A DNA stretch of 64,000 nucleotides from Candidatus Heimdallarchaeota archaeon (GTDB lineage Archaea; Asgardarchaeota; Heimdallarchaeia; JABLTI01). The position numbers and the translations under genes were made by a program. Where the stretch lies: contig JAHLVW010000025.1 of the NCBI GenBank assembly GCA_019058275.1, positions 25,171 to 89,170 on the forward strand, given 5' to 3'. The notes beneath the pieces were generated by a model that worked only from the letters and a program-made list of their open reading frames with translations, was not told where the DNA came from and searched no databases. Of the stretch, positions 8,879 to 64,000 are shown one piece after another (the stretch's first letter is position 1; each line of letters begins with the position of its first letter).

Positions 8879-9490
8879 TTATGTTTCTCTTTCTTTTCGT
8901 AATTCTTCTATTTCTTTAGCTAATTCTGCTGAACGAATATCTGGGGTTGGTAAACCTGTTTCAGCACCTAAACCAATTTCTGTACCTATTTCACCCATGA
9001 TTTTGTCAACTTCTGTTTCATCAACATCTAATGACATCATGCTTTCAAAATCTTCGTCCATCATATCTGTGGTCATTTCTATTCCTTCAAATGACCTTTC
9101 AAGATCATCTATTAGAGCTGAGATTTCGGGGGCATTTAAACTAGCATTTACTTGTCGTAATGCTCCAGCCATTCCTTTCAATTCTCCCGCCAATTGCTGA
9201 ACAGAATCTGCTTGTTCAAGTCTGAAGATAATTCCTTCAATTCTAGTTGTTAGTTTTGTATAACTGTAAACCCATTTACGATTTCGGGCAACATTTGATG
9301 CATATAATCTAGCCTGATCCATTAGTCCTTTTCTCAATGAATCTCGGCATTTTCTTTGAATTTTTTTTTCATCAGTTTCTAATTTTTTAGATGATCTCGC
9401 TAACCTTTTATTGACCATTTTGAGATCGATAATATAATCACGAGTAGCTTTTCCGCCACCAAGCCATCTGACAAATTTTCCAAATACCAT
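8879..9490 (-). CDS. ESCRT-III subunit, Vps2/Vps24/Vps46 (Snf7 family)
   Basis: Basic N-terminal helices (ARLYASNVARNRK), acidic C-half, MIM1-like end ELAKEIEELRK. Confidence 0.85.
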   Translation of the reverse strand: MVFGKFVRWLGGGKATRDYIIDLKMVNKRLARSSKKLETDEKKIQRKCRDSLRKGLMDQARLYASNVARNRKWVYSYTKLTTRIEGIIFRLEQADSVQQLAGELKGMAGALRQVNASLNAPEISALIDDLERSFEGIEMTTDMMDEDFESMMSLDVDETEVDKIMGEIGTEIGLGAETGLPTPDIRSAELAKEIEELRKERET

Positions 9491-40114: not shown

Positions 40115-41743
40115 TCAATTTCGTAATATGCAAAATTCTTGTATAAGCTTACTTAAACACATATTACAAAATTTACGAGTTTGTGGTTTCGGGATTCTAA
40201 AACAGTTACATAGTAAATTCTTGTATTGAGTTATACTGTAATCCGGCAATCCTATCACTGTAAAGTAACCTCCCTCTTTTAGCTGTAATCCTTTTAATAT
40301 TGTGAATAAAGTATCGAAAGGGTGTGTCGGAAATTGACACTTTGATTTATGGATTTGAAAGGTTAATTGATTATGTTTTGTGAGAAAATCTTTCAAAGAC
40401 AAATCAAAAACTGAAAGCATATTTGTGAATAAGCGAACAGGTATTGCTGTTTTATCTAATTCATATTTGGAAAGTAAGCTTGGTGTTATGGAAAGCTGTG
40501 AAGATAAGTGCTTTTGTTTGTGATGATATTTCTCTCGTAAATGCTGGATAGTATTTCCTAAATTTTTGAAACGCAAATCTGGAATTAATTGGAAATCAAA
40601 ATAATGAGTAAGCATTTTCTTAGTGTTAAAGGCAATTACTTGATCTATCCAAATACCTTGTTTTTCTAACGTAGGAATTCGAGGGGAAAACCGATAGACC
40701 TTTTTCTTCAAGAGTAACCGTAGTTCATCTTGTTTTTGTGGATGGGCTGTATCGATTAATTGAGCAAATCGTTTCCGGGATTCTCCTGCAACAGTAAAAC
40801 TATGTGATATTCCCCCGAAGACTGATTTGGTGTAAAAACGGCAATGAATATTGTGCTGGGATAAGTAAGCAGAAAAATCGTATAAAAATCGTTGTGAAGC
40901 TGAACTAAAACTAATTATCGTTTTATAACTCCCATCAGCATCCATAACACCACGCCAAAAGGCTTTCCGGAAAAGATCATTCTTTTGAAAAATGAGCGGT
41001 TCACGAAGAGCAGGATATTTCCGGGCATTGATCGGTTGTCCAGAGAGAAAATTAAAGAAGCGAACGATCCATTTACCAAGGATGTTAACGTTCCACGCAT
41101 TAGCATTTGATTGTTTGAAAATCTCAATTTTCGATTGAAAAAGTTCCACAAGCAAAGCAGCTATTAGATCAATATGCTCCTTTGAGTAGTCAATGATATT
41201 CACAAAATAGTCTGCAAGATGGCCATCACCTATAACCACCCCAGAAATATAAGCTAAATCTTCAGTAAGGCAGAGTGGAAACTGGAATGCTTCACCACGA
41301 GCAGATTGGAATTGCACTGCCAGTTTTTCGTAAAAGTAGCTCTCCCAATCGTCTACTAACCGAAACAGTGGAAAGGGGAGTCGTTGCTGATTTTCTAGAT
41401 ATGAAATGATCTTCTTCTGCCAATTACGAATAGACTTATTGTAATTACAACCTTTAAAATAATAATGAACTTTTTCAGCTATCGAAAGTGAACGCTTTCG
41501 TACTTTCTGTATCCATGCATGATCTAAAACTAAATACGGAAATGATTGAAGCGGTCGTTCGCCTGAAACAAAATCGATTTTACGTACCAAAATAGGATAA
41601 GGGTGAAGTTGATTATTCTTTAAGAGATACTGTTCACTTTGATGTTTCTCTAGTATTTGGTTCGCAGTAAACCACACCTCTTGTTTCAAAGGTGCAGGGT
41701 CAAGTAGTAGCGGATCAGTTGTCCAAGATAAAAAATTGCGCAT
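40115..41743 (-). CDS. Stand-alone double-motif LAGLIDADG endonuclease-like protein with XRE-HTH (copy 1)
   Basis: LAYISGVVIGDGH and FWRGVMDADGS; HTH 'QKHLSSQLSITPSLLSKYE'; paralog of 61102-62721. Confidence 0.8.
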   Translation of the reverse strand: MRNFLSWTTDPLLLDPAPLKQEVWFTANQILEKHQSEQYLLKNNQLHPYPILVRKIDFVSGERPLQSFPYLVLDHAWIQKVRKRSLSIAEKVHYYFKGCNYNKSIRNWQKKIISYLENQQRLPFPLFRLVDDWESYFYEKLAVQFQSARGEAFQFPLCLTEDLAYISGVVIGDGHLADYFVNIIDYSKEHIDLIAALLVELFQSKIEIFKQSNANAWNVNILGKWIVRFFNFLSGQPINARKYPALREPLIFQKNDLFRKAFWRGVMDADGSYKTIISFSSASQRFLYDFSAYLSQHNIHCRFYTKSVFGGISHSFTVAGESRKRFAQLIDTAHPQKQDELRLLLKKKVYRFSPRIPTLEKQGIWIDQVIAFNTKKMLTHYFDFQLIPDLRFKNLGNTIQHLREKYHHKQKHLSSQLSITPSLLSKYELDKTAIPVRLFTNMLSVFDLSLKDFLTKHNQLTFQIHKSKCQFPTHPFDTLFTILKGLQLKEGGYFTVIGLPDYSITQYKNLLCNCFRIPKPQTRKFCNMCLSKLIQEFCILRN

Positions 41744-42046: not shown

Positions 42047-42075
42047 TTTAAATATATTATATATGTATATTTAAA
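42047..42075. promoter_or_regulatory. Palindromic divergent promoter/operator between abrB and cas7
   Basis: Perfect 10-bp inverted repeat TTTAAATATA-N9-TATATTTAAA, giving a TATA-like box on each strand. Confidence 0.55.
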
Positions 42076-50947: not shown

Positions 50948-51501
50948 ATGAAATTATCTGAGTGGGCAAAACAAAAAGGAGTATCAAACAAGACTGCTTG
51001 GCGATTAGTGCGAGCAGGGATTTTCCCGAACAAATAGGACAACTTCCAACAGGAACTTATATCATTGGGGAAAAGGAAACAAAAACAATACCCCAACAAG
51101 GAGCAGTATATGCAAGAGTATCCTCACACGACCAAAAAGAGGATTTGCAACGACAATTACAACGATTACGAGAATATGCAAAAAGCAATCAACTAATAAG
51201 AAGAAAAGAAGTATTTGAAATTGCTTCAGGATTAAATGGTCATAGAAGGAAGCTTACAAGACTTCTAGCTGATTCTTCAATTAGTTTTATCATTGTAGAA
51301 CATCGAGATAGATTAACCCTGTTTGGATTTGAGTATTTGCAAGCAGCATTAAAAGCGACAAAGCGAAGGATCATTGTCATGAACCCTGTGCAATGCAAAG
51401 ATGATCTCGTACAAGATATGATTGATATACTCACTTCTTTTTGTGCCAGACTTTACAGGCAAAGATCAGCACGAAACAGAAAGAAGAAAAATGCAAAGTA
51501 A
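50948..51501 (+). mobile_element. tnpA: IS607-family serine transposase (tnpA) remnant, frameshifted, with no adjacent tnpB
   Basis: ATG 50948 gives MKLSEWAKQKGVSNKTAWR (HTH), frameshift ~51025, then YARVSS..Q..DL.RQ, EIASGLN, EHRDRL, DDLVQDMIDILTSFCARLY. Confidence 0.85.
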
Positions 51502-51625
51502 AACAACACTCTCTTCACCAGAGAATAAAGGAATAGGTGTTTTAGCACTTTTTAAAGAAAAAACGCAGAGAAATAGCTAGAGGAAAAAAGTATACAGTAC
51601 ATACACAAATAAGCAGGTAAAAGAA

Positions 51626-52540
51626 ATGACAGAAGACGAACAAAAGGGAGAATTTGACTCACTCTTAGTAAAAGCATCTCTTATGGAATCTCAACTTGAA
51701 ATCCAAGAGGTATCAGATGAGTCATTTAATTTATACCAAGAAGATATCGGGTTCATTATGGCTTTTGATACTTTACTAGAGCATCAAAAATTAACTTCAA
51801 CTATGAAGATACGATTCGATTTTTTAGGATTAGTTACAACAAAAGAAGAGGAAATCGCAAGGAACGGAAAACATTATTTGAAAATTCAATTACAAGACAT
51901 TCATGGAAAAACAATCAATCTCTGCGTCTTTGAGGAAACACCTCATTTTTGTTCTGTGCAAGAATTTACAGAGCGTTATCTATTAAGCGAAGAGCAATCA
52001 TTGATATTCATTCAATCGCTGCAGTGGGATGGTAAATATCTCTCAGCAGACAAGTGGACATTACTTGAAAACGGTGAGCAACACCCACAAGCAAAAGTCT
52101 ACAAACAAGTAGAAGAGTACCTTTCGCTAAAATTTCTACCAAAAAAGAATAAAAATTTAGCATTGGCTATAAGCAATTCTTTCTTACAAGCAGAGGAACT
52201 AGTTCACAGAGTTCTAACTTTACTTGAAAAACAGAAAGCAGTAGGTGATTTGGAATCGGAAGAACACGCAAGCACTTTGCTAAGTAAAATAGCTGAAATT
52301 GTCTATGCAAAAACATACACTGGTACGAGCTATCTTCTCCAAGGAGAACCACAAGCAAAGATAACAGATGAGTATGCAAATTATTTCTCGGGGCAATTAC
52401 AAACAATTCTTGGGATGATAAAGAACTCGAAGCGTCAATCATTCAGAGAAATTGCATTACTCTGTATACTTGAGCGGTGGCGAAGAGAAGTGATCTCGCT
52501 TCACGAATTTGAAAGACTACAGAAACAAGACAAATCTTGA
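51626..52540 (+). CDS. OB-fold-containing protein
   Basis: 'GLVTTKEE..ARNGKHYLKIQLQDIHGKTINLCVF' resembles nucleic-acid-binding OB folds. Confidence 0.55.
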   Translation: MTEDEQKGEFDSLLVKASLMESQLEIQEVSDESFNLYQEDIGFIMAFDTLLEHQKLTSTMKIRFDFLGLVTTKEEEIARNGKHYLKIQLQDIHGKTINLCVFEETPHFCSVQEFTERYLLSEEQSLIFIQSLQWDGKYLSADKWTLLENGEQHPQAKVYKQVEEYLSLKFLPKKNKNLALAISNSFLQAEELVHRVLTLLEKQKAVGDLESEEHASTLLSKIAEIVYAKTYTGTSYLLQGEPQAKITDEYANYFSGQLQTILGMIKNSKRQSFREIALLCILERWRREVISLHEFERLQKQDKS

Positions 52541-52550
52541 GCAGATAACT

Positions 52551-53615
52551 ATGACCCAAGTGCATAAACAAGCGAGTCAAGAGGAAAACAATTATTTACC
52601 CATCGAAGATTTTCTGCTTTGGGCAGAGCAGAAAAGTTATGAAATTCCAATAGAAGTTCAAGAACGTCTTCTTAGTTTTCCTTGGCTCAAAGACACGAGA
52701 GCATTGAAATGCTTATTTGGCTCACAATTAGTTAAATTCGTGGGTTTGACAGAAAAGCAATTAGAATTACTGATCGGGATATATCTTCAATTCTCCCCTG
52801 TAATATTAAGGTCTCTTACCGAGTTGGATGCTGAAACTTCTTTATTCTTTTCCACTGGTTCCAAGAATGTTGACGAATTATTAAAAGGAGGAATCGAGAC
52901 GGGGCATCTCTTCGAGTTTACAGGACCACCAGCATCTGGTAAAACACAATTTTGTTACGCAACATTGTTATCTTGTTACAGCCAAAAAAATGATGAGCAA
53001 CAAGGGAATTCTATCATCTGGTTAGACACAGAGCATTCGCTTTTACCGTCGAAAGTCAAAGACACGATCAAAAAGCTACAACAAAATGATAAGCATCTCT
53101 TCAAATTTGTGAGGATCCGTACTTTCCCTGAATTTCTGCAAGCAATGTTAGAGCTGTTGAAATTTTGCCAGAGCGAATACAATCTGCGTTTGATCATCAT
53201 TGATTCGCTTATAGCGCCTTTTGATCGGCATTACCAACAAGATTTTCCAGCTAGAGCACAAGCATTACGTGAATTAATAGGATTCTTGAAAGATGTTTGC
53301 AGAGTTTTTAATTGTGCAATAATAATAACAAATCAAGTTCGAAAACCACACACAGATGCTGAGAAAGAAACAGGAGAAAAACACTTGCCTTTAGGTGGAT
53401 TCGCTTTTGCTCATGCTACTGAGAATCGGTTTCTGATTGAACCTTTAGAGGGGCGAAGAAAAAAACTGAAAGTGTTAGACAGTTCTTATCTTCCTAATGG
53501 TGAAACCATTTTTTACCTTAACAAAGAAGGCATAGCGGATGTGGCGAATAATAACTTTCTGGACAAGCAAGAAACTTGTCTCGATTCTTCTAAAGAGAAA
53601 AGAATTTTTGACTAA
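52551..53615 (+). CDS. RadA/Rad51-like ATPase paralog
   Basis: STGSKNVDELLKGGIETG, GPPASGKTQ, LIIIDS, ITNQV, PLGG..AHA, DSSYLP. Confidence 0.85.
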   Translation: MTQVHKQASQEENNYLPIEDFLLWAEQKSYEIPIEVQERLLSFPWLKDTRALKCLFGSQLVKFVGLTEKQLELLIGIYLQFSPVILRSLTELDAETSLFFSTGSKNVDELLKGGIETGHLFEFTGPPASGKTQFCYATLLSCYSQKNDEQQGNSIIWLDTEHSLLPSKVKDTIKKLQQNDKHLFKFVRIRTFPEFLQAMLELLKFCQSEYNLRLIIIDSLIAPFDRHYQQDFPARAQALRELIGFLKDVCRVFNCAIIITNQVRKPHTDAEKETGEKHLPLGGFAFAHATENRFLIEPLEGRRKKLKVLDSSYLPNGETIFYLNKEGIADVANNNFLDKQETCLDSSKEKRIFD

Positions 53616-53638
53616 CGAATAGGAGGAACTTATTACAA

Positions 53639-56600
53639 ATGGTGACTTCATAAAAGAGCACTATTACACTCCCGGAATTATTATTCGAACATTTCACAGA
53701 ATTATACACTACAGAGGATGCAACTACACTCCTAGTTTATAACAAGCTCACTAATGAGTACTCAAAAGAAGAGATTCGAAGGATAATTGAAGATCCATCT
53801 TTGCGGTCAATAAGATGTTCAAGTAATGAACATGCTATTGATCTACTAATCCTACGTGCTCTGGGATTAGTGGAGAAAAAGAAAGAACCTGTGGTACTCG
53901 TTGTTAAATCTACACAGAAAGCGAAAGAAGTCCTTGCCTTGCTTGATGAACAATTAGCTACTGCCAAGATTGCTAATCTGTTCACACAGATAAAACGGAA
54001 AAGGAATTTTACAATTTATGGCAATCCTGATTTCATCATTTGCTCGTATCAAAAATTATACCATCTATTAACAAAGACAAACTCAGATAAAAAGAATCAA
54101 ATAAAAAAGGAACGATTAAAGGTTTCAGGAGTAGTTTTTCTTACACCACTTTCGCGAACAAATTACCGAATAGAGTGCATCCTTCTCGACCAGATCCTTA
54201 ACGTGCTTCCAAAAAGGTCTGCTTACACCTTCATTCATGGCGAAGAACTCTGTTTTCGAAAAGAAGATTTGGAATGGTTGATTCAAGGTCCAGCTATCGT
54301 GTATAAAAATGAAGATTATTCTCGTCGTGATCTTTTGAAAGATTTTCGATTGAACATCTTTGAGGATCGAAATCTTGTTGCTGCAGCAAGAAGAGAAAAC
54401 GATTTTTCTGGTATGTGTGGTGCTTCCTATCTCCTTATACTTATTCTTTCCGCAACTTTTCACCGTCGAAAGAACCTCAAAGAGCTAAAGATAATAGTAA
54501 AACAAAGTATTAGCTATAAGCTATGGTTTGCATTCGAAGAAGCACTTCTTAAAGATCCTGATGAAATTATTACTTACAGCATAAACTATCAGCTCTGGCT
54601 AATCCTTGATTATCTATCAAGAAAGTGCAAAGTTAAATTAGTCGAGCTAAAAGAAAATGGTTACTATTATCTAACAAGTGAAGGGCACCAATTTTTCCAT
54701 CGTTTTTGCTTCAGTGATGGGTTAACTGTTTCACTATTTTATGTTTTACATGCTTTATCTAAAAAACTTGAGAAAGGGTATCTCACAGCCAAAGATTTAG
54801 AGAACCTTTTGAATGATTTCATTGACCTAAATATTATCTGGGATGTGTTCTATTTAGACGATAATAAAGCAGCAAACTACGAAGTTCAAAAAGCTTTGAA
54901 CAATAACTATGCTTTTCGATCTGCTCATGACATTTTCGAAGGATTAGATGTAGATTTTGGTCTCTTAGCCGAGGATGCTAAAAGAAGTCTTGCCGCTCAA
55001 AAAAGTATTCTAAGAGAACAGAACGATTTCAAGTACTCTTCTAAGCAAATGGAGGATCAAATACATTCAGAGGAAGATGATGAAACGATTATTGAGAGTA
55101 TTGATGAACCGAAAATAACAAAGATCTATTCCAAAAAATTTCTAGAAAATTTCATCCTGAAGATTGTCTCTCAAGAGAACATCACACCTCAAAGAATAAC
55201 TGAATTAGCAATTAAAACAGGTATTGGTAAACAACACATAAAAAACACATTGATTAAATTAGAACAAAAAGGTGAGTGCCAAAAGATCTCAACAAAAGGG
55301 GTTCACTGTGATGAAGTGATTTATGGTATTGAAGAAAATCTTCTTGCAGAACCCCATCTTTCCGAAACTTGTGATACTTGTGTTTCCATTGATCAAAAAA
55401 TCAGACTGTGTACTATTAATCGTTTATTGATGGAGGTTGCTTACAGCTCACTCAAGAAGATCTATTGAGAGCTACCAATCGCATACTAGAAAATATCAGA
55501 GCATGTGGTATGTATAAAAAAGCGGAAGATAATAGAGATTTCACATTAAGTCGTACAGAATTTGGAACATATACACGAAAGAACTCAACCGTACTATCAG
55601 CTATCAATAAAGATTTTCAAACACAAAACCAACACCTTTGCTTGTTTTGTATACAAAAGATTAAAGCCTTGGGTTCATTGGAGGAACCCTTTTTCCCTTC
55701 AAAAACAATAACTTGTTCAAACTGTAATTCCAAATATATCTACAATGCTAATAGAGATAAAGTTCGTTGTATAAGTGATGACCGAAATGTCAATCGCTCA
55801 ATTATCATCAATAAGCTCGCTTATGTACCTGAAATTTTGAAGCAGAAAGAAGAACGTATTCCTCTTACAATTTATGATACTGATAATCTTGAATTAATAA
55901 AGAATACGGATTCTTCTACTGACATACAAGAAGATAACTTCAGGGTTTATTATCTAATTTTTAATGAGAGAAAGTATATTTTGTCAGAGATTGAACGAGT
56001 TTATTTTCAAGGGAACAAGTATCCCGAGATAGAAGAAGCATTAAAACAATTAGGCTTCACTCGGATGTATCGTAAACAAACAAAAAAACTAGATTCCAAA
56101 GAAGAACTCCAAGAAAAGAAAAACATCGAAATTGCTACACTAGATAAAGTTACAAAAAAACGATATCAACGAATAATTGAGTTATTACGAAACGAAAGCG
56201 TGATGATAAATTCTTCTTTACAAAGCAAAATTAATTCCGTGATCACTTTCATCTTAGCCTTTAGTAAAAGTCAAAAACAAGGGAAAAAGAACAAAAAAAC
56301 TAATTTTAACAAAGAACTTGGTGAGTGCATCAAAATACTCATACGAGCAAAAGATAATGTTAATGATCCTGAAGCAGCAAGGACTCTTGAAGGGCAAGCA
56401 TTTAATCAAGCATTTAAAATTTTGAAGGGTGTAGGACGAAAAGCAGGTATACGTTCCTGGGGACGAGTTGTAAGCAGGTTGGTCACATGGTTAGTCTTTG
56501 CTACATTTACACGCACTTGCGCCTATTCCAAAATGGATGCCATGTTGAACCATCTCTTCAAAATCGTGCTCAACGAATTAAAAGAAGTTCATCAAAAAAC

Positions 56601-57739
56601 AGGTATAGATGTAGACTTTGGTCCGGGTTTACTTCACTATCGTGAAAGCAAATCGGATATTGATAGAATTGGTTTGTTCCTTGATCTTGTTGACTTTGTT
56701 CGATTACTAGGCATTTTTGTACTTGCAGAAGCAATAAGCAACAAAGAAATCACTAGTAAAGATTGCCGACTCTTCCTTGGTCGAGGGGCTATTCCTCTTT
56801 ATGATATTGAAATTCCTTCTTTAAAGAAATTTGAAATGCTTGCAGAGCGTGTTTTGAGCTTCAAGATTAATTATAAGGATCAAGATGTTCCACTTAAAGA
56901 TGCTTATGAAGATTATTTGAACTCATTTCGACTTTTCTTGGATTATTTATCAAAATTCGATGTTAACTATTTGACTCAACTTTCACAGAATGAGTTGACT
57001 GAAATTGTTAATGAATGTTTATTGAGAAACTAATTGCCAAGCAATTAGTTTCTCAATAAAGGATTTTGATCAAAAAATAGAAGCAATCGATCTTTGCTCT
57101 CAGGAATGGAAATTTCTCTATAAAGGTTATGAAGACAAATTCCTTGCTCGGAAAAAAGCTCGGGAAGATTTTCGAAGAGAAGCAATGACTAATCTTTTCA
57201 GTCTCGAAGAAAAAACTGTTGACTTATATTATAACTCTACTTTAGAAAGATATCAACCCTCACTTTCAAAATATCAGAAACGAGAGCGGCGATGGATGTT
57301 TTATGTCCTTTTAATTCTGGCTATAAAATATAGAGAGGATCAAAGGTTTGTAGGTTACACAATAAAAGAACTGATGAATATATTTGGATTAAAATATAAA
57401 AAAACTAGATTGCTTTTAATGAAAATGATTAATAAAAATATGTTAAGACGAACTAAAGGATTAAACAAGAATTATTTTTACTATTTAAATATTGAAAATA
57501 GAATTAATGAATTACTTATTGATTTCTTAGATTTCGATTTGGAAAATGAGATTGATGATATAAATGAGATTAATGGCAAGAATTCAAAATTTTTGTTTTT
57601 GATAATAAGGCAATATATAACGGATTTTCTAGAAAAAAATCGGATATTAGGAATTGAACACAAATCTTCAACCTTTGAAGATAAGGCAAGAGAAATTTTA
57701 GTCCAGATAAACAAAAGGATGGACATGCAATATGGTTGA
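53639..57739 (+). pseudogene. Giant Cas1 fusion (degenerate SF2-helicase-like + wHTH + Cys-rich Zn + Cas1 + wHTH), ~1360 codons, three lesions
   Basis: AGGAGG then ATG 53639; TAA at codon 5; frameshifts ~55465 and ~57030; Cas1 motifs RTLEG, DAMLNH, GLLH, LFLDLVDFVR. Confidence 0.75.
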
Positions 57740-60158
57740 AGATAAAAGTCTAAATAAAAATGAAGGTGCACCAATTTGGTTAAAACAAGCTTATCGAGAA
57801 TCTTCAAAGCACAATGCTCGCTACAAAAACATAACTACCCTCCAACCATGTTCTCCAGCGAATGGCTTTAAGAAATGGACTGAGCTTGGACTAGCTCCTT
57901 CACTTGGAACTATTGCAGCAGAAATAACAAGCAGTGATTATCCTTATTTACATCAACAAGAAACGATAACTAGTCTACTTTCAGAAGAAACAAAACAAAA
58001 ACCAATAATTCTTAGAGGTGGAACCGGTTCTGGAAAATCTTTGGCTTTCCTCCTACCTGCAATTTCATTAATCCTTCATGGAAAAATTGATTTCGTTGTG
58101 GTTTTTTATCCTATGAAGCAATTGATAGAAGACCAATTCTTTAATCTGAAAAAAATCTTGTTAAAAATTTATGAACAAACAGGGCAACTAATAACTACAA
58201 AAACCTATTATGGAGAACAAGGCTTAGGTGCTGAAGAAAAAGATGCCTGGGAAAAAGAACTGCAAGAAACAGAACAAAACCCCCCAAATATCCTTTTAGC
58301 GACATTTGACAAGGTTTTTTATCAATTAACCCATAACCAAGAAAAAGATTGCTTGCTTCAAAATAAAATACAAAATGCTCCGTATCTTGTTTTTGATGAA
58401 ATACATGCTTTGAAAGGATTACCAGCTGCATATATTCGTAATTTTCTTCGAATCCATAAAATGAGAAATCCTGATTGTCGAATTATTTTATCCACAGCAA
58501 CGGTGGCAGCAGTAAAACAATTCAGCAAGCAATTTCTCACCTTGAAATCCGGATTAATTAATAATCCTGAAGCGGTGATTATTGATAGTAATCCTGTAAG
58601 AGGAACGATCCATGTACGAGCAGTTATGTCTGAGAGCTTCTTACCTTTGTTAACTATGATCGAAAAAGAACTACCTAAAGGCACTACAGCCTTTGTTTTT
58701 ATAGATTCAAAAATAAAGATCGAGCATTACGCAAACATGCTTGGATTAAAACTTCGAAAGGATCAAGCACTTTATGACTTAGGGAAGATATGTGTTCTAC
58801 ACGCGAACCTACACCAAAAGATCAGAAAACAAGCTCTAATTAATGTGCGAAACGGAAAAGTAAAGTTCGTCTTTACTTCAGCAGTTTCAGAATTAGGATT
58901 AAATTTTCAAAATATTCAAACTATCATCAATGTTGGTTGGCCTGTAAGTGGCAAAGATGGATTATTACAGCGAATTGCTCGAGTGCGAGCAAAAACTGCT
59001 GAACAGAGGGTTATTTACTTGGTGTTCGACCTTGAAAATCCAAGAGATAAACTATACTATTCAAACCTTTCCATTATTAAGGAGGTTCTTGAAGAGTATC
59101 AATGCACGCCGATACTATATCCTGAGAGAAACCAGAAAGTAATAACTACAACTATCCTTCTTCTACTAATTTATGGTTACAAAAAATATTCTGAGATTAT
59201 TGCTTTTTTTGGTAGTGAATTACAAATAAGTGTTGAAAAATGTATTACTGAACTTCTTTGTCATGCAATCATCCAAAAAAATGATCAATTATTATCACTA
59301 GCTGAAACTAATTCAAAGGCATTCAGAAAATTAATAGCTGGTAGTATTCGTGCTATCGCTGAAAACTGGAAAATAACACACCAAGAAGGCTCTGTAGAAA
59401 GAGTTTTAGGTTTTGCTTCACCAGAGGAAATCATTCGTGGGGAATTACCAGGTAATATTCTATTAATCAATAAGAGTCCTTATCTCGTGATATCATTTGA
59501 TAAAAACCAGAAAAAAATCTGTGTGGGTTTATCAACCATGAAACAAAAGGCATTGCCTTTACCTAGCAATGTTTTAGCAAGTCCTGATGTTAGAACGAGT
59601 CTATTCCCAAAGAAAAAACGATTGCCTTCTGGTCTAATATTTCAACTTGGAGAATTAATTGTCTCTAAAAAACCAAAATTAATTGCTAAATATAAACCAA
59701 GTGAAAAGGAATTCTTTCAGTATCAACCACTGAGAGATTCTGAAATAGCTGCTTATACTTTCGATGAAAAATCATATGGTATTCTAGTAAATATCACAAA
59801 AATCTTTCAGGATCCCTTGCTGAGTCTTTTCGCTAAGAACACCAAGAAAGTGTTAGCCTGTCTTGCACTAGTACTAAAAACACAGATCGAACTAACGTTG
59901 CAGATACCTCAAAGCGAGTTAGCAATTGTTTACAACGACTCTCAATTTGCTATCTATGATAAAGGAGGAAGGAATGGCAACGTGCACTATTTCTTCAAAG
60001 AATTACCTCTAGTAATTGAACAAGCAATTAATCGTCTTGTTGATTGTAGTTGCTCAGATGGTTGTGAGAAATGCTTTGGGAGAGATTTTACCAAGCTGTT
60101 ACCTAGAGGGAAAAGCAAAAAAATACTCAAGCAAATACTTGCTTGGTTGCAGGAGTGA
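57732..60158 (+). CDS. SF2 DEAD/DEAH helicase with C-terminal DUF1998-like Zn domain (YprA/MrfA-like)
   Basis: YLHQQE, GTGSGKS, YPMKQLIEDQ, DEIH, STAT, SELG, QRIAR; YDKGGRNG...CSCSDGCEKC. Confidence 0.85.
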   Translation: MVEDKSLNKNEGAPIWLKQAYRESSKHNARYKNITTLQPCSPANGFKKWTELGLAPSLGTIAAEITSSDYPYLHQQETITSLLSEETKQKPIILRGGTGSGKSLAFLLPAISLILHGKIDFVVVFYPMKQLIEDQFFNLKKILLKIYEQTGQLITTKTYYGEQGLGAEEKDAWEKELQETEQNPPNILLATFDKVFYQLTHNQEKDCLLQNKIQNAPYLVFDEIHALKGLPAAYIRNFLRIHKMRNPDCRIILSTATVAAVKQFSKQFLTLKSGLINNPEAVIIDSNPVRGTIHVRAVMSESFLPLLTMIEKELPKGTTAFVFIDSKIKIEHYANMLGLKLRKDQALYDLGKICVLHANLHQKIRKQALINVRNGKVKFVFTSAVSELGLNFQNIQTIINVGWPVSGKDGLLQRIARVRAKTAEQRVIYLVFDLENPRDKLYYSNLSIIKEVLEEYQCTPILYPERNQKVITTTILLLLIYGYKKYSEIIAFFGSELQISVEKCITELLCHAIIQKNDQLLSLAETNSKAFRKLIAGSIRAIAENWKITHQEGSVERVLGFASPEEIIRGELPGNILLINKSPYLVISFDKNQKKICVGLSTMKQKALPLPSNVLASPDVRTSLFPKKKRLPSGLIFQLGELIVSKKPKLIAKYKPSEKEFFQYQPLRDSEIAAYTFDEKSYGILVNITKIFQDPLLSLFAKNTKKVLACLALVLKTQIELTLQIPQSELAIVYNDSQFAIYDKGGRNGNVHYFFKELPLVIEQAINRLVDCSCSDGCEKCFGRDFTKLLPRGKSKKILKQILAWLQE

Positions 60159-60165
60159 GCCTTAG

Positions 60166-60801
60166 ATGAAAATCTGTGTTCTCGCAGATGTACATTTTGA
60201 TCACCCAAATTGCTATAGAGAGGAATTTTTAGAAGCGATCTCATTAATTGCACCAAAAATGGATGTAATCGTCCTTAATGGTGACTTTTTGGATAGCACT
60301 TCTAATAAAACTCGTAAACTATTCGAAGAATTTCTCGAACTTGCAAAAAAAGAAAATTTCTTGACCAAATTATTTTTCGTTCGCTCATCATCACATCACG
60401 ATGGAGTGTTAGATGAATTTTGGGATTTAGCTATGAATGATTACGCAGAATTCAGTACAAATATCGGAAAAGTCATTTGCATTCACGGGAACAAAGTAGG
60501 ATTACATCTAGATGAAAAAGGAAGTGAGGAGTTAGCAGCAATAAAAGCAAAAGAGATATTGATCGAAAAAGGCAGGAAATGGCTTCCAAAAATAACTCAG
60601 GAGCACCATGTGATTTTTAGTCACCTGCACAGAAAGTTCTACAACGAACGTAAGAGAGTTTATGGTACTGGTTGTTGGATTCCGGCAAAGGACAGAAGAA
60701 GCGAAAAAGTAACTATGATAATAGACGATGAAGACAAAAACGACACGATTAGCAACAATACTTTAGCACAATTACGTGAAAAATATCAACAAAAACATTA
60801 A
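60166..60801 (+). CDS. Calcineurin-like metallophosphoesterase
   Basis: ADVH, NGD..D, SHHD, IHG, SHLH, TGCW. Confidence 0.8.
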   Translation: MKICVLADVHFDHPNCYREEFLEAISLIAPKMDVIVLNGDFLDSTSNKTRKLFEEFLELAKKENFLTKLFFVRSSSHHDGVLDEFWDLAMNDYAEFSTNIGKVICIHGNKVGLHLDEKGSEELAAIKAKEILIEKGRKWLPKITQEHHVIFSHLHRKFYNERKRVYGTGCWIPAKDRRSEKVTMIIDDEDKNDTISNNTLAQLREKYQQKH

Positions 60802-61101
60802 GCATTTTTTTTCGGAATACAATTGAACAAATTACTTGATTTTGAATTAATAATTGCTTAAATTAAAAGAAAATTAAAGAAAAAATGCATTTTCATATAT
60901 AAACCCCCACGTTTTTAGATGTCCCTTTTAGATTATATTACAATGTAGTTTTTCATTAATTATTAATAACCAATTACCAAATCCTCAATAGCTTCTAGTT
61001 TGAGCATTTCAGAAAAACTGATTATCATTAGCAAGTAGATAGTATCATATGAATGCTCTTCTTACAAAGATATCGAAAAAAAAGGTTTGTTTTAACAATC
61101 T

Positions 61102-62721
61102 TCATTTGAGGGGAAAAAATTCTTTTATAAAAGAATAAAGCACTGCATTTCGAAACAATCTTTTTTCAGGGATACTAATTAAGAAATATGAACAAAACTC
61201 TTCCTTGTATTCCTCTAATGACTTGTTTTCTGTACCAATGAAAAGAAAATAACCACTATCCTTTATTTGTATTCCTTGGAGTAACATTAAAAGAAACTTA
61301 TTTGGTTGTGTATCTAAAGTGCACTTTGATTTCCTAACTCGAAAACTTAATCGTGGATTCTGTCTATAGAATTCTTCTATCGAATAGTTTGCTTGAGTGA
61401 ATATTAGACTTAGAATTGTTATTGGTAGAGCTATTTCATTTCGCTCATATTGAGAAAGCATACCTTGATTTATTGGTAATTTTTCAGTAAATTTCTCTTG
61501 TGTTTCTTTTCCTCTCAATTCTAACAGCAGATCACCCACATTCATTACACAGAAATTACCAATTCTAGAAAAGTCAAAAAAACCACTCAGTAATTTATCT
61601 TCTCGAAATGATTTTACTCTTCCTTCCCAAGTTCCTTGCTTGAAAAGAGTGTGTGGTCGTTGGGAAAAACGATTAACTCTCCTAGAAAGGAGCTCTGTTA
61701 TTTCATCTGATTTCTGTGGGTGAACAGTTCCAATTAATTCTGTGAAATCCTTCCTTGACTTTCCTAAAATACTGATACTATATGTTATTCCACCAAAAAC
61801 TTCTTGTTTATAATTCATAAAATTAATACCATTTTGTAATAAAAAGCTCTCAAAGTCAATAATTAATCTCTTAGAAGCAGATCCAAATAAAATGGTTGAT
61901 TTATAACTCCCATCTGCATCCATCAGTCCACGCCAAAAGGCTCTCCGGAAAAGTTCATTACCTTGGAAAATGAGCGATTCACGAAGAGATGGATACTTTC
62001 GTTGGTTAATGGGTTGTTCCAAAAAGAAATTAAAGAAACGAACGATCCATTTACCTAACAAATTAACATTCCAGGCATTCGCATTGGATTGTTTGAAAAA
62101 CTCTGTCTTAGAATTAAAATTATTAATTAATAATTTAGACAAATTTTCTATGTGTTCTTTAGAAGAATCAATGATATTGATAAAATAATCAGCAAGGTGA
62201 CCATCACCCATAACAACACCTGAAAGATAAGCAAGATCCTCAGTCAGAAAAAGTGGAAGTTGAAAGTCCTCTCCTCGAGCAGATTGGAAGGAAAGAAATT
62301 GTTTGTCATGAAATATTTTAAGCCAATCAGGGTATAATCTGAATAATGGGAAAGGCAAACGCTTTTGCTCTTCGAGATATTTAATTAATCGTTTTTGCCA
62401 CGATCGAATATTGTAATCTACAGGAGTTTCTTGAAAGTAATTGTGAGCTTTTTCTGCTAAGAATAAAGTTTTTTTCCTAATCTCAACCATTCTTTCTTCG
62501 TCTAAAACAATGTATGGAAAAGATTGTAGCAACCGTTCTTGAGAAATGAAATCAGTTTTACGAACCATTATAGAGTACAACTGGAATTGACCTGTAGAAG
62601 TGAAAATCTTCTCTCGTTGACCACTTTCTATTAGATCGTTTGCTGTTAACCACTTGTTTTGAACCATTGGTTCAGGATCAATTAGTAAAGGATCTGTTCT
62701 CCAATGAAGAAACTTTTGCAT
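61102..62721 (-). CDS. Stand-alone double-motif LAGLIDADG endonuclease-like protein with XRE-HTH (copy 2)
   Basis: LAYLSGVVMGDGH and FWRGLMDADGS; 'TQEKFTEKLPINQGMLSQYE'. Confidence 0.8.
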   Translation of the reverse strand: MQKFLHWRTDPLLIDPEPMVQNKWLTANDLIESGQREKIFTSTGQFQLYSIMVRKTDFISQERLLQSFPYIVLDEERMVEIRKKTLFLAEKAHNYFQETPVDYNIRSWQKRLIKYLEEQKRLPFPLFRLYPDWLKIFHDKQFLSFQSARGEDFQLPLFLTEDLAYLSGVVMGDGHLADYFINIIDSSKEHIENLSKLLINNFNSKTEFFKQSNANAWNVNLLGKWIVRFFNFFLEQPINQRKYPSLRESLIFQGNELFRRAFWRGLMDADGSYKSTILFGSASKRLIIDFESFLLQNGINFMNYKQEVFGGITYSISILGKSRKDFTELIGTVHPQKSDEITELLSRRVNRFSQRPHTLFKQGTWEGRVKSFREDKLLSGFFDFSRIGNFCVMNVGDLLLELRGKETQEKFTEKLPINQGMLSQYERNEIALPITILSLIFTQANYSIEEFYRQNPRLSFRVRKSKCTLDTQPNKFLLMLLQGIQIKDSGYFLFIGTENKSLEEYKEEFCSYFLISIPEKRLFRNAVLYSFIKEFFPLK

Positions 62722-62890
62722 ATGACTCTCCTATCATTTAATCTTCATCAACATTCTTAAATACCTCTTAGAAAAGCTGTGCGTTTTACTAATTGATTAA
62801 CTATTCTTTTAAATAAACATGAATACTTTCAGCGAACTCTTTAAATAAATACTATATATCTAGCTAAACATAAACAATAACGAAGAAAAA

Positions 62891-64000
62891 ATGTCCTCAT
62901 ACAAAAAGAAAAAGACATCCACAAAAAGCTACCAATTCAAACTACAAAGAAATAATCAATTGAACTGGTTCCAAGCACTAACAACAAATGCAGCAGAAAA
63001 ACTCCTGGAAGAGCTCTGGTCAGTAGAATGGTTGACCAAACTGGGCAACAGTAATCTTAAAGCTTACAAAGTAATAAACGAAGCACAAGCACAATTAGAA
63101 GGAATTTATCTCCCATCAAGAGTTCGAAGAGGAGTAGCAGAATGGGTAGGTCGAATCATCAGAGGGCAATACAAACGTTACAGGTGCTACCAAGACTGCA
63201 TAGAAATAGTCAACTGGTTAGGAGTGGAAACCAAAGAAAGCAAACTAATAGCAGTGGTCATGCAGCATTGTAGAATAATTGGAAAGAATAGAAAAACGTA
63301 CACCAAATACAAAAAAATCATGGTCCAGCAAACATTAGCTATGATAAAGAACAAGAACCAACGACTAGGTTCAGGGTTCGCTAATTTTGCCTACACAGAT
63401 CACGTCCAACCAAAAATAAAGTATTATGCTTTTAATTTCGGACCAGATGACGACCAAGCAATAAGATACAAAGTAGAAAATCAAATCATCAACTTAGAAA
63501 TAAAGTTACCAAAAACAGCAGAACCAAGAACCAGAGATGATTGGGAGTGGCTAGAACAAGAACTCTTTATCCCTTCAAAAGTGCAAGCAAAAATTGCTAA
63601 AGCACTATCTACTCAACCAGTCAAACCAACCTTGAGAGAAAAGACCTTGAAAGGAGGGCAAAACTACTTTTTCCTACAATTTCCTTGGCAATATCCAAAA
63701 AAGTCACGAAAGAAAAGAAAGGAAAGAGTACTTGCTATCGACCTTGGCTTGAAGAAAGTGGCAATAGTAGCTGTTTTTGAAAAGGGAAAACAGATATCAA
63801 GACCGATAACCATCAAACTCAAAGGTTCAGAGTATTGGCACATAGAGAGAATCTATGAACACATTGCAGAAAACCAACGGCAAATAGCGAAGCAAAAAAA
63901 GAAAAGGGAAAGCAAACAGGTAAAGGTAATTAGAAGAGGAGAGAAGAAGACTATACGAGAAGCGAAACAGATTAGGAGAAGAACTCGCACACACAACAAC
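62891..64000 (+). CDS. tnpB: TnpB/Cas12f-like RuvC nuclease, truncated by the window edge (not in ORF track)
   Basis: Open frame from ATG 62891 (MSSYKKKKTSTKSYQFKL); RuvC-I 'RVLAIDLGLKK' near 63725. Confidence 0.75.
   Translation, partial: MSSYKKKKTSTKSYQFKLQRNNQLNWFQALTTNAAEKLLEELWSVEWLTKLGNSNLKAYKVINEAQAQLEGIYLPSRVRRGVAEWVGRIIRGQYKRYRCYQDCIEIVNWLGVETKESKLIAVVMQHCRIIGKNRKTYTKYKKIMVQQTLAMIKNKNQRLGSGFANFAYTDHVQPKIKYYAFNFGPDDDQAIRYKVENQIINLEIKLPKTAEPRTRDDWEWLEQELFIPSKVQAKIAKALSTQPVKPTLREKTLKGGQNYFFLQFPWQYPKKSRKKRKERVLAIDLGLKKVAIVAVFEKGKQISRPITIKLKGSEYWHIERIYEHIAENQRQIAKQKKKRESKQVKVIRRGEKKTIREAKQIRRRTRTHNN

Follow-up and report, generated by a model that had tools for sequence, protein, structure and literature searches.

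A putative Asgard aCas1-TnpB-class mobile element in a tRNA-Leu gene, with a RadA-like ATPase, a predicted OB-fold partner, and a broken giant aCas1 gene

Introduction

Asgard archaeal loci that join an aCas1 homologue of Cas1 to TnpB are predicted to be transposons, with aCas1 proposed as the transposase, in passages of two papers (PMC10691335; PMC8730458, the latter citing Makarova et al. 2020, CRISPR J 3:156). The TnpB groups in question are Cas1H-Asgard-1 and Cas1H-Asgard-2 (Altae-Tran et al. 2023, PMC10691335), and a variable stretch after tnpB followed by a conserved GTTCACTCA motif has been reported for these loci (PMC10691335). Here we analyze a 64,000-nucleotide stretch of DNA from a Candidatus Heimdallarchaeota archaeon (the window; GCA_019058275.1, contig JAHLVW010000025.1, positions 25,171 to 89,170 of the forward strand), in which genes for an OB-fold protein, a RadA-like ATPase, a giant aCas1, a YprA-like helicase, and a metallophosphoesterase lie side by side. 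Our preferred reading, held at even confidence, is that these five are internal genes of a mobile element of ∼13.7 kb and of the aCas1-TnpB class, and that they serve its own propagation rather than the host by a mechanism that we infer below.

Whether the Asgard Cas1 homologues are transposases bears on the origin of CRISPR adaptation from mobile elements; to our knowledge no other Cas1 proteins are as diverse, and none of these homologues has yet been assayed. The locus described here adds no new kind of system. What is new is the OB-RadA pair, the mapped ends, and a natural pair of broken and intact copies; the OB-RadA pair, the serine recombinase, and the mapped tRNA-Leu insertion mark the locus as a variant. 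These provide concrete material in the form of an element with both of its ends and an empty tRNA-Leu target, together with a near-identical pair in which aCas1 is either intact or knocked out.

Results

The element appears to split a tRNA-Leu(UAG) gene at a site without the insertion in four congeners

The window takes up the final 64 kb of contig C11 in a metagenome-assembled genome (MAG; 4.1 Mb in 118 contigs, 6.8% contamination; G000), and its homologues are labeled Candidatus Heimdallarchaeota by NCBI. The S25e/JAB flank to the left of the element is present in seven congeners. In two of them, G003 and G002, the flank passes straight into tRNA-Leu(UAG) and then into sequence equivalent to C53:2441->1, C53 being a contig of the window's genome (L050, G000:C53); the arrangement is the same in G004, with a flank 94% identical, and in G001. 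The tRNA was annotated in G003 and G002, read by eye with an intron in G004, and recognized in G001 by an 87% match to the tRNA stretch. The match of the flank to G001-G004 ends at window position ∼50800-50842. On C53, a stretch of 45 nt ending in ...AAAGGAAC comes after the tnpB stop and leads into tRNA nucleotides 6-34. These alignments show an apparent insertion that splits tRNA-Leu(UAG) at a site that is empty in four congeners; with tnpB taken at its expected length, the element measures ∼13.7 kb. Its features within the window are listed below.

50834-50842, + strand: tRNA-Leu(UAG) stub, first 9 nt (GCGGGGGTA), at the left junction; the G003/G002 flank continues into the whole tRNA
50843-50947, + strand: element left end, beginning ATTGCAGTTGATTTTTGTTTGGACAAATAAGAC; the empty-site homology ends at 50842
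50948-51501, + strand: IS607-type serine recombinase gene (N-terminal helix-turn-helix [HTH] plus resolvase domain), frameshifted; Pfam Resolvase, 7e-16
51626-52540, + strand: OB-fold protein, 304 aa, with an element-specific N-terminal tail, an OB domain, and a helical domain, from the fold search
52551-53615, + strand: RadA/Rad51-like ATPase, 354 aa from its conserved start; Pfam Rad51, 9e-34
53639-57739, + strand: giant aCas1 gene, broken, colinear with paralogue P0005 and with the open reading frame (ORF) at L054, a locus in GCA_050009915.1; its parts run N-terminal region, winged helix, Zn ribbons, Cas1 N- and C-domains, C-terminal winged-helix region
55465-57033, + strand: middle ORF of the giant, 522 aa, with a Zn ribbon and the whole Cas1 fold (residues ∼120-520), from PADLOC, profile, and AlphaFold
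57732-60158, + strand: YprA/MrfA-type SF2 helicase with an MZB (DUF1998) Zn domain, 808 aa, from Pfam, PADLOC, and a Protein Data Bank (PDB) match
60166-60801, + strand: calcineurin-like metallophosphoesterase (MPE), 211 aa; Pfam Metallophos, 1.4e-6
61102-62721, - strand: LAGLIDADG-like plus HTH protein, 539 aa, divergent from tnpB, with at least 22 paralogues in the genome
62891-64000, + strand: tnpB, first 370 codons, known from a full-length homologue; the contig and window end falls inside the gene, and the 3' part and right end are on C53

The right end is kept in seven tnpB copies, each with a moderately variable 13-20 nt (∼18 nt in most) followed by a conserved ...CCATAAAAAAAGGAAC, and sequence diverges completely right after it. 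A left-end motif was found in three copies (the window, the end of C105, and C117), the latter two each preceded by GGGT(A/T). The two junctions of the window element share GGTA, 4 nt at most. With its ends placed in inverted orientation, 17 of 24 positions match by eye, which is indistinguishable from chance because the DNA is AT-rich; an inverted-repeat search of the complete unit at L051 likewise returned 432 chance-level pairs in AT-rich DNA.

The tRNA locus has further peculiarities. A second, complete tRNA-Leu(UAG) lies ∼600 nt past the disrupted fragment (L050, 8493-8580), and it would mismatch the presumed TnpB guide, as 2 of its first 20 nt are not those of the disrupted allele. Beside it, C53 2441-8488 forms a 6-kb block with genes for a caspase-domain protein, an FtsX-like permease, and an ABC ATPase and with no integrase; a spare 3' tRNA tail follows at C53 ∼2401-2441, so that the block looks stacked behind a tRNA tail. 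An integrase-bearing island was considered for this position and rejected, as its 409-aa ORF proved to encode the caspase-domain protein. The orthologous tRNA-Leu of G004 (L040, G004:C393, ∼2545-2680) has an apparent anticodon-loop intron and was not called by ARAGORN. In two other genomes (G008:C63:27589-40937 and G010:C6:33297-45067), a Cas1-like match occurs ∼10-11 kb downstream of the S25e/JAB flank and the C53 synteny is lost past the tRNA-Leu; such elements may have landed at this locus repeatedly.

Gene content

From the OB gene onward, the + strand ORFs are 51626-52540, 52509-53615, 53801-55468, 55465-57033, 57185-57739, 57732-60158, and 60166-60801, and the intergenic gaps of the operon are at most 154 nt. 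The first-pass annotation of this DNA had described five tightly packed, co-directional genes in a CRISPR-less Cas1 operon with no cas2, array, or polB inside. The genes do lie at these positions in one direction, but the giant Cas1 is not one gene here, and the operon does not stand alone: it sits within an insertion whose flanking TnpB, LAGLIDADG-HTH, and serine recombinase genes, by which the element is defined, had been overlooked. The absences held up: we found no Cas2 match among the scanned element ORFs (TnpB's family being assigned through a homologue), no CRISPR or tandem repeat array in the window, and no PolB among the ORFs between the element ends, all of which were scanned (TnpB through its full-length homologue). 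A CRISPR adaptation module was accordingly rejected, there being no Cas2 match and no adjacent array.

Pfam matches agree with the RadA-like ATPase, DUF1998 helicase, and phosphoesterase first named at this locus. The helicase has DEAD, Helicase_C, and MZB/DUF1998 domains (Pfam), and its best solved relative is Bacillus subtilis YprA/MrfA (6znp, E 5.8e-11). In some relatives the metallophosphoesterase is fused to it, giving the 1055-aa forms of L011 and L051. TnpB was assigned through its full 543-aa homologue (Cas12f1-like_TNB, 1e-19; OrfB_IS605).

The unit occurs at different sites in sibling genomes

The seven genes OB-RadA-giant-helicase-MPE-LAGLIDADG-TnpB recur together at no fewer than six independent loci in distinct genomic contexts. 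An intact giant of 1353-1372 aa is present in the units at L054, L055, L037/L038, L059, and L060, each with different neighbors. As read from these copies, the unit of the subfamily is an OB gene, a RadA-like gene, a giant aCas1, a YprA-like helicase, a metallophosphoesterase, a LAGLIDADG-HTH gene on the opposite strand, and TnpB, with an IS607-type recombinase at the left end in some copies. The window's genome itself contains at least nine Cas1-domain matches, many of them at contig ends. The aCas1-helicase-phosphoesterase triad is found again on C17, C50, C27, C106, and C93, and helicase-phosphoesterase pairs are found on C101, C19, C33, and C84; C117 has a second, more decayed aCas1 copy without helicase or phosphoesterase. 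These copies are mostly near LAGLIDADG-HTH and/or tnpB genes, and the triad stands with both in L051, C50, and C27. The elements in L037, L055, and C17 carry a type IIG methylase/restriction-like gene as cargo.

The closest copy, L054, lies between other host genes than the window unit. Its insertion site is empty in the window's genome (C105:68627; flank 99.2% identical) and in GCA_019058195.1. The comparisons thus show, as far as aligned loci can, a multi-copy unit that occupies different sites in sibling genomes and ends in a conserved TnpB right end, which in the window's copy abuts the cut tRNA. The neighborhood and presence/absence survey proposed with the first-pass annotation therefore found the five genes conserved together elsewhere; of the two functions that the annotation had offered, a mobile element is favored by a bounded, multi-copy insertion whose site is empty in four congeners, and a non-programmable defense system stays as a rival.

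Between window 51480-63611 and L054:8931-21065 the divergence is mosaic, at ∼13% in OB, ∼5% in RadA, and ∼2% in tnpB and at ∼0.1-0.2% in the 8-kb block from the giant to the LAGLIDADG gene (identity in the giant, helicase, MPE, and LAGLIDADG genes, ∼99.8-99.9%). The synonymous divergence (pS) to L054 is 0.32 for OB and 0.11 for RadA. Because OB and RadA are far more diverged than the rest, the element copies are mosaics, and this pattern implies, on alignment evidence, recent recombination or gene conversion between element copies.

Several neighboring loci deserve mention. The LAGLIDADG-HTH family (at least 22 copies) is found head-to-head with tnpB or, at window 40115-41743, with an array-less RAMP-like two-gene module (42075-44119), and one regulator-like gene thus partners two nuclease modules. 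At L053:643-9013, a very distant family member (1599 aa, with a weak PD-(D/E)xK match) lies between a TnpB gene and an opposite-strand Rad51-like gene, the product of which is 24% identical to the window's RadA-like protein. A second TnpB-LAGLIDADG-giant-helicase element (L012, G000:C27, 6791-9032) adjoins acetyltransferase and ABCE1 genes. Where C27 has this element, GCA_019058195.1 has a DUF1295 gene (L037:1506-2913), and a 148-aa C27 ORF may be what is left of that gene, which would make this a further insertion polymorphism.

The middle ORF of the giant has a Cas1 fold

The 522-aa ORF matched Cas1 in PADLOC (1e-7), and a profile of the aCas1 family (25 members) searched against the PDB matched the casposase 6opm (1e-6) and Cas1 4n06 (1e-4). 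An AlphaFold model of the ORF had a predicted local distance difference test score (pLDDT) of 80.6 and a predicted template modeling (pTM) score of 0.71 and contained the two-domain Cas1 fold, an N-terminal beta domain followed by an alpha-helical catalytic domain. All of the top 50 Foldseek matches in the PDB were Cas1 or casposase (best 4n06, E 1.9e-7), with ∼390-400 aligned columns and TM scores of up to 0.62 by target. Glu309, His391, and Asp407 are conserved in ≥90% of the 25 family members and Asp410 is present in the window copy; in the alignment to 6opm and 4n06, Glu309, His391, and Asp407/Asp410 coincide with the catalytic residues (E, H, and D/E). In Escherichia coli Cas1, the catalytic residues are Glu141, His208, and Asp218/Asp221. 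On the basis of the predicted fold and the aligned catalytic residues, the domain belongs to the Cas1 superfamily. The motifs RTLEG, GLLH, and DLVD that had first suggested Cas1 are present, and the profile and structural comparisons that had been called for both recovered Cas1. The family is rare, with 27 representatives among 1.84 billion proteins.

The OB-fold protein is predicted to bind the RadA-like ATPase

The RadA-like protein has the ATPase core of the RecA fold (Rad51 Pfam, 9e-34), and its Walker A (GPPASGKT) and Walker B (RLIIIDS) motifs are invariant in 11 homologues. The conserved start is Met15 of the ORF, at position 52551. All NCBIfam RadA/RadB equivalog scores were far under the cut-off, so the protein is a divergent paralogue and not the housekeeping RadA. 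For the OB protein, no sequence-family match was obtained by phmmer against the PDB, by a profile against the PDB, by Pfam on 12 members, or from Atlas features. Its AlphaFold model (pLDDT 67 overall, rising to 70-85 in residues 64-300) is built on a beta1-3/helix/beta4-5 core; the top Foldseek matches of the model were all OB domains (LysRS, RPA70, STN1, and POT1; E ∼3e-3, probability 0.9-1.0). The OB fold, which had been assigned at first from the sequence, is supported by this predicted structure at modest E-values. Three copies of the OB gene are present in the window's genome. A distant single-copy host paralogue was found in all 11 of the 11 genomes of the genus, and the element form adds the N-terminal tail.

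The two proteins were also modeled as a complex, which scored 0.70 in comparison to 0.00 for the best control; 58 of 80 solved complexes and 2 of 110 mismatched pairs attained the mark applied to this score, which is a rough one because our own alignments were used. At least 71% of contacts were shared between runs, and the partner pLDDT was at least 76. The predicted interface places the element-specific OB tail (residues 3-43) against RadA residues 176-215. These models support binding of the OB protein to the RadA-like ATPase as a prediction. Both genes show purifying selection between the window and L054, with ratios of nonsynonymous to synonymous divergence (pN/pS) of 0.26 for OB and 0.32 for RadA. 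Together with the Cas1 fold and its conserved E, H, and D residues and with the invariant Walker motifs, this suggests that the enzymes are active. The pair is a feature that this subfamily adds to the aCas1-TnpB kind and is new here; a literature search for TnpB plus RadA turned up no paper on a recombinase inside such elements. That the subfamily has its own RadA-like recombinase and a predicted OB-fold partner hints that recombination is part of the spread of the element.

The giant aCas1 gene of the window appears to be recently broken

The full-length relatives of the giant are 1350-1390 aa long, and the paralogue P0005 (1357 aa) is colinear with 53639-57739 across three frames. In the window, this frame is broken into ORFs of 555, 522, and 184 aa. 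The L054 copy, 97.9% identical over 12.1 kb, encodes the giant as one 1372-aa ORF (L054:11089-15207); the giant Cas1 fusion of the first-pass annotation is therefore real in that copy and is disrupted here, by a nonsense codon and two frameshifts, into three ORFs. The first lesion is TAA at codon 5 (53651-53653), which is CAA in L054. The second is a 4-nt deletion at 55447, where (CTCA)3 has become (CTCA)2. The third is an added G at 57026, inside a perfect 14-bp palindrome at 57024-57054 (GAGAAACTAATTGC caa GCAATTAGTTTCTC) that is imperfect in the intact twin. The clustered changes and extra G at 57024-57054 have the look of a quasi-palindrome "corrected" by template switching. Apart from the lesions, only 0-8 substitutions separate each of the giant, helicase, phosphoesterase, and LAGLIDADG genes from its L054 counterpart, and the lesions are recent for this reason. 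The serine recombinase gene is frameshifted at a T4C3 run (51021-51027), with its HTH in another frame. The window copy thus appears to be a recently inactivated relic with three lesions in aCas1 and one in the serine recombinase, its other genes being intact. In the N-terminal 555 aa of the giant, the profile against the PDB found only a winged helix and a Zn ribbon, and Atlas features gave an SF2/RecQ-helicase lead at 0.77-0.80, under the level to trust.

Two other explanations of the three ORFs were weighed. They might be the subunits of a working, split giant protein, as every piece is open without further stops and the first ORF junction is a TTGA stop/start overlap. We think this unlikely, since the nonsense codon strips a conserved 54-aa N-terminus, the third ORF can begin only 49 conserved codons late, and the neighboring recombinase gene is frameshifted too; moreover, all six of the other subfamily copies keep one ORF, and the intact twin is only a handful of substitutions away in 4.1 kb, so that the lesions must be very recent. 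Alternatively, they might be assembly or sequencing errors in a gene that is intact in the organism, given a MAG of 118 contigs with 6.8% contamination, contig ends that differ at 6% of overlap positions, and a recombinase frameshift in a T4C3 run. This explanation is very unlikely: neither aCas1 frameshift is a homopolymer error, one being the loss of a CTCA repeat unit and the other a palindrome-perfecting cluster, both classic types of spontaneous mutation; the remaining aCas1 lesion, the nonsense codon, is a C-to-T substitution; and the 2.4-kb helicase gene next door has no indel in comparison to L054. We conclude that recent inactivation best fits the window copy.

Serine recombinase genes and remnants mark the left ends

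The serine recombinase gene starts 105 nt inside the left boundary. An intact 189-aa homologue at L014:12251-12820 heads the decayed C117 copy, and the genome has only these two resolvase genes, both at the left-end position of an element. Remnants of the recombinase 3' end were detected at L059:8165-8272, L055:3778-3870, and L054 ∼8925-8945 (36, 31, and ∼7 codons, respectively), the last of which directly abuts the empty-site flank. Left ends in L059, L055, and L054 are thus truncated at different points and the right end is constant. Because remnants persist in three other copies, the serine recombinase is ancestral to the subfamily. Most copies lack any recombinase besides aCas1.

These findings bear on what moves the element. 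aCas1 is favored by its presence in every copy across deep divergence, by its retained catalytic residues, and by the lack of another recombinase in most copies. Several points weigh against the preferred reading as a whole. A serine recombinase gene marks the left end both in the window and on C117, with remnants in L059, L055, and L054; its product could be the true transposase and could work in trans on the copies that lack it. The junction sharing of 4 nt or less (GGTA) suits insertion of the IS607/IS605 type better than the duplications of a casposase, integration by which yields 14-15-bp target duplications. The published GTTCACTCA motif is absent near the right end, downstream of tnpB. 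The aCas1/helicase/MPE block and the LAGLIDADG/TnpB block have discordant nearest paralogues, and either orientation of the operon with respect to tnpB is found, so that these blocks reshuffle. Finally, the join between the contig end and C53 rests on synteny, with a 309-nt overlap only 94% identical, and the C53 part of tnpB is frameshifted; the two contig ends may for these reasons come from different strains.

The principal alternative is that the insertion is an IS607-type TnpA(Ser)/TnpB transposon, moved by its serine recombinase (in trans where this has been lost), and that the five-gene operon is cargo, most plausibly for non-programmable defense or DNA repair. In addition to the position of the recombinase gene and its remnants in three other copies, this is consistent with the few nucleotides common to the junctions and the GGT at both element boundaries, and with the type IIG methylase/restriction-like gene inside the elements of L037, L055, and C17. 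Serine-recombinase-linked TnpB branches have been reported with helicase and WhiA/meganuclease-like cargo (PMC10691335). The helicase also matches the Cas3, DruE, BrxH, and Dpd models in PADLOC, via its generic SF2 core only, and no PADLOC system model fits. Against the role of cargo, every copy has the triad, over a range of 25-70% identity, and the recombinase by comparison is sporadic (two resolvase genes versus at least nine Cas1-domain matches), and complete units such as L051 hold only TnpB, LAGLIDADG-HTH, the giant aCas1, and a helicase-MPE fusion. We regard the cargo explanation as possible but somewhat doubtful and rank it second, behind genes that serve the propagation of the element, to which we give an even chance.

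Discussion

If the five genes serve propagation, a division of labor can be proposed. Unoccupied sites would be cut by TnpB, with a guide RNA that extends into the flanking tRNA sequence; unwinding and trimming of the DNA ends would fall to the helicase and the phosphoesterase; the RadA-like ATPase and its OB-fold partner would promote strand invasion, by which the element would be copied into the cut site or retained there; and the Cas1 domain would join the element ends to the target DNA. A more speculative version, which we consider improbable, makes aCas1, the YprA-like helicase, the phosphoesterase, and the RadA-like/OB pair a single polymerase-free, recombination-assisted DNA insertion machine working with TnpB. 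Repair of an RNA-guided cut at the empty site would then proceed through strand invasion that the element itself encodes and that is anchored at the constant TnpB end, with Cas1 sealing the far junction. Such a machine would explain the invariant right end in comparison to left ends cut back to different points inside tnpA (L054, L059, and L055); if it exists, it would amount to homing based on Cas1 and might stand as an intermediate between transposons and CRISPR adaptation. More generally, the locus raises the question of whether the serine recombinase or Cas1 is the mover of the element, an either/or choice that can be tested at the bench.

Comparison with known systems

The DUF1998 helicase had at first suggested a DISARM- or Druantia-like system. 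These share with the locus an SF2 helicase core and, in DrmA/DrmB-type proteins, the DUF1998 domain, but the locus has no DrmB/DrmC/methylase set and no DruA-D. PADLOC gave only partial matches to a generic SF2 core (DruE, Cas3, BrxH, and Dpd) with no other component found, and the link was rejected on these grounds. MrfA(YprA)-MrfB, in which MrfB is DnaQ-like, and Lhr-core/MPE are bacterial repair gene pairs. They resemble the locus in having a DEAD-box helicase with a C-terminal MZB/DUF1998 Zn domain beside a nuclease-type partner; here, by contrast, the helicase is partnered by a calcineurin-like phosphoesterase, always in association with aCas1 in a mobile element, and there is no ligase.

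Casposons (family 2, with the Methanosarcina mazei casposase 6opm) are closer, with a Cas1-fold integrase that has catalytic E, H, and D residues outside CRISPR, in an archaeal element able to sit in tRNA genes. Unlike casposons, the element has no PolB, its junctions share 4 nt or less rather than a 14-15-bp duplication, its inverted repeats are weak, and its Cas1 is embedded in a protein of ∼1360 aa paired with a helicase, a phosphoesterase, and TnpB. Membership was rejected for want of PolB and of a 14-15-bp target duplication with terminal inverted repeats. With the IS607 family, the element shares a small HTH serine recombinase by the left end, a right end made of the tnpB 3' end plus ∼45 nt, and little or no target duplication. 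The TnpA serine recombinase is thus found at one end and TnpB at the other, as in that family, although tnpA is frameshifted here and absent from most copies, and tnpA and tnpB are separated by ∼11 kb of additional genes.

The nearest described relatives are the Asgard aCas1-TnpB loci. The element differs from them in its OB/RadA-like pair, in the IS607-type recombinase of some copies, in having no GTTCACTCA, and in being a broken copy. It resembles them in a highly diverged Cas1 beside TnpB, without an array or cas2, in conserved ends, and in its multiple copies, and a diverged Cas1 and a TnpB are found together here within end-bounded Asgard DNA.

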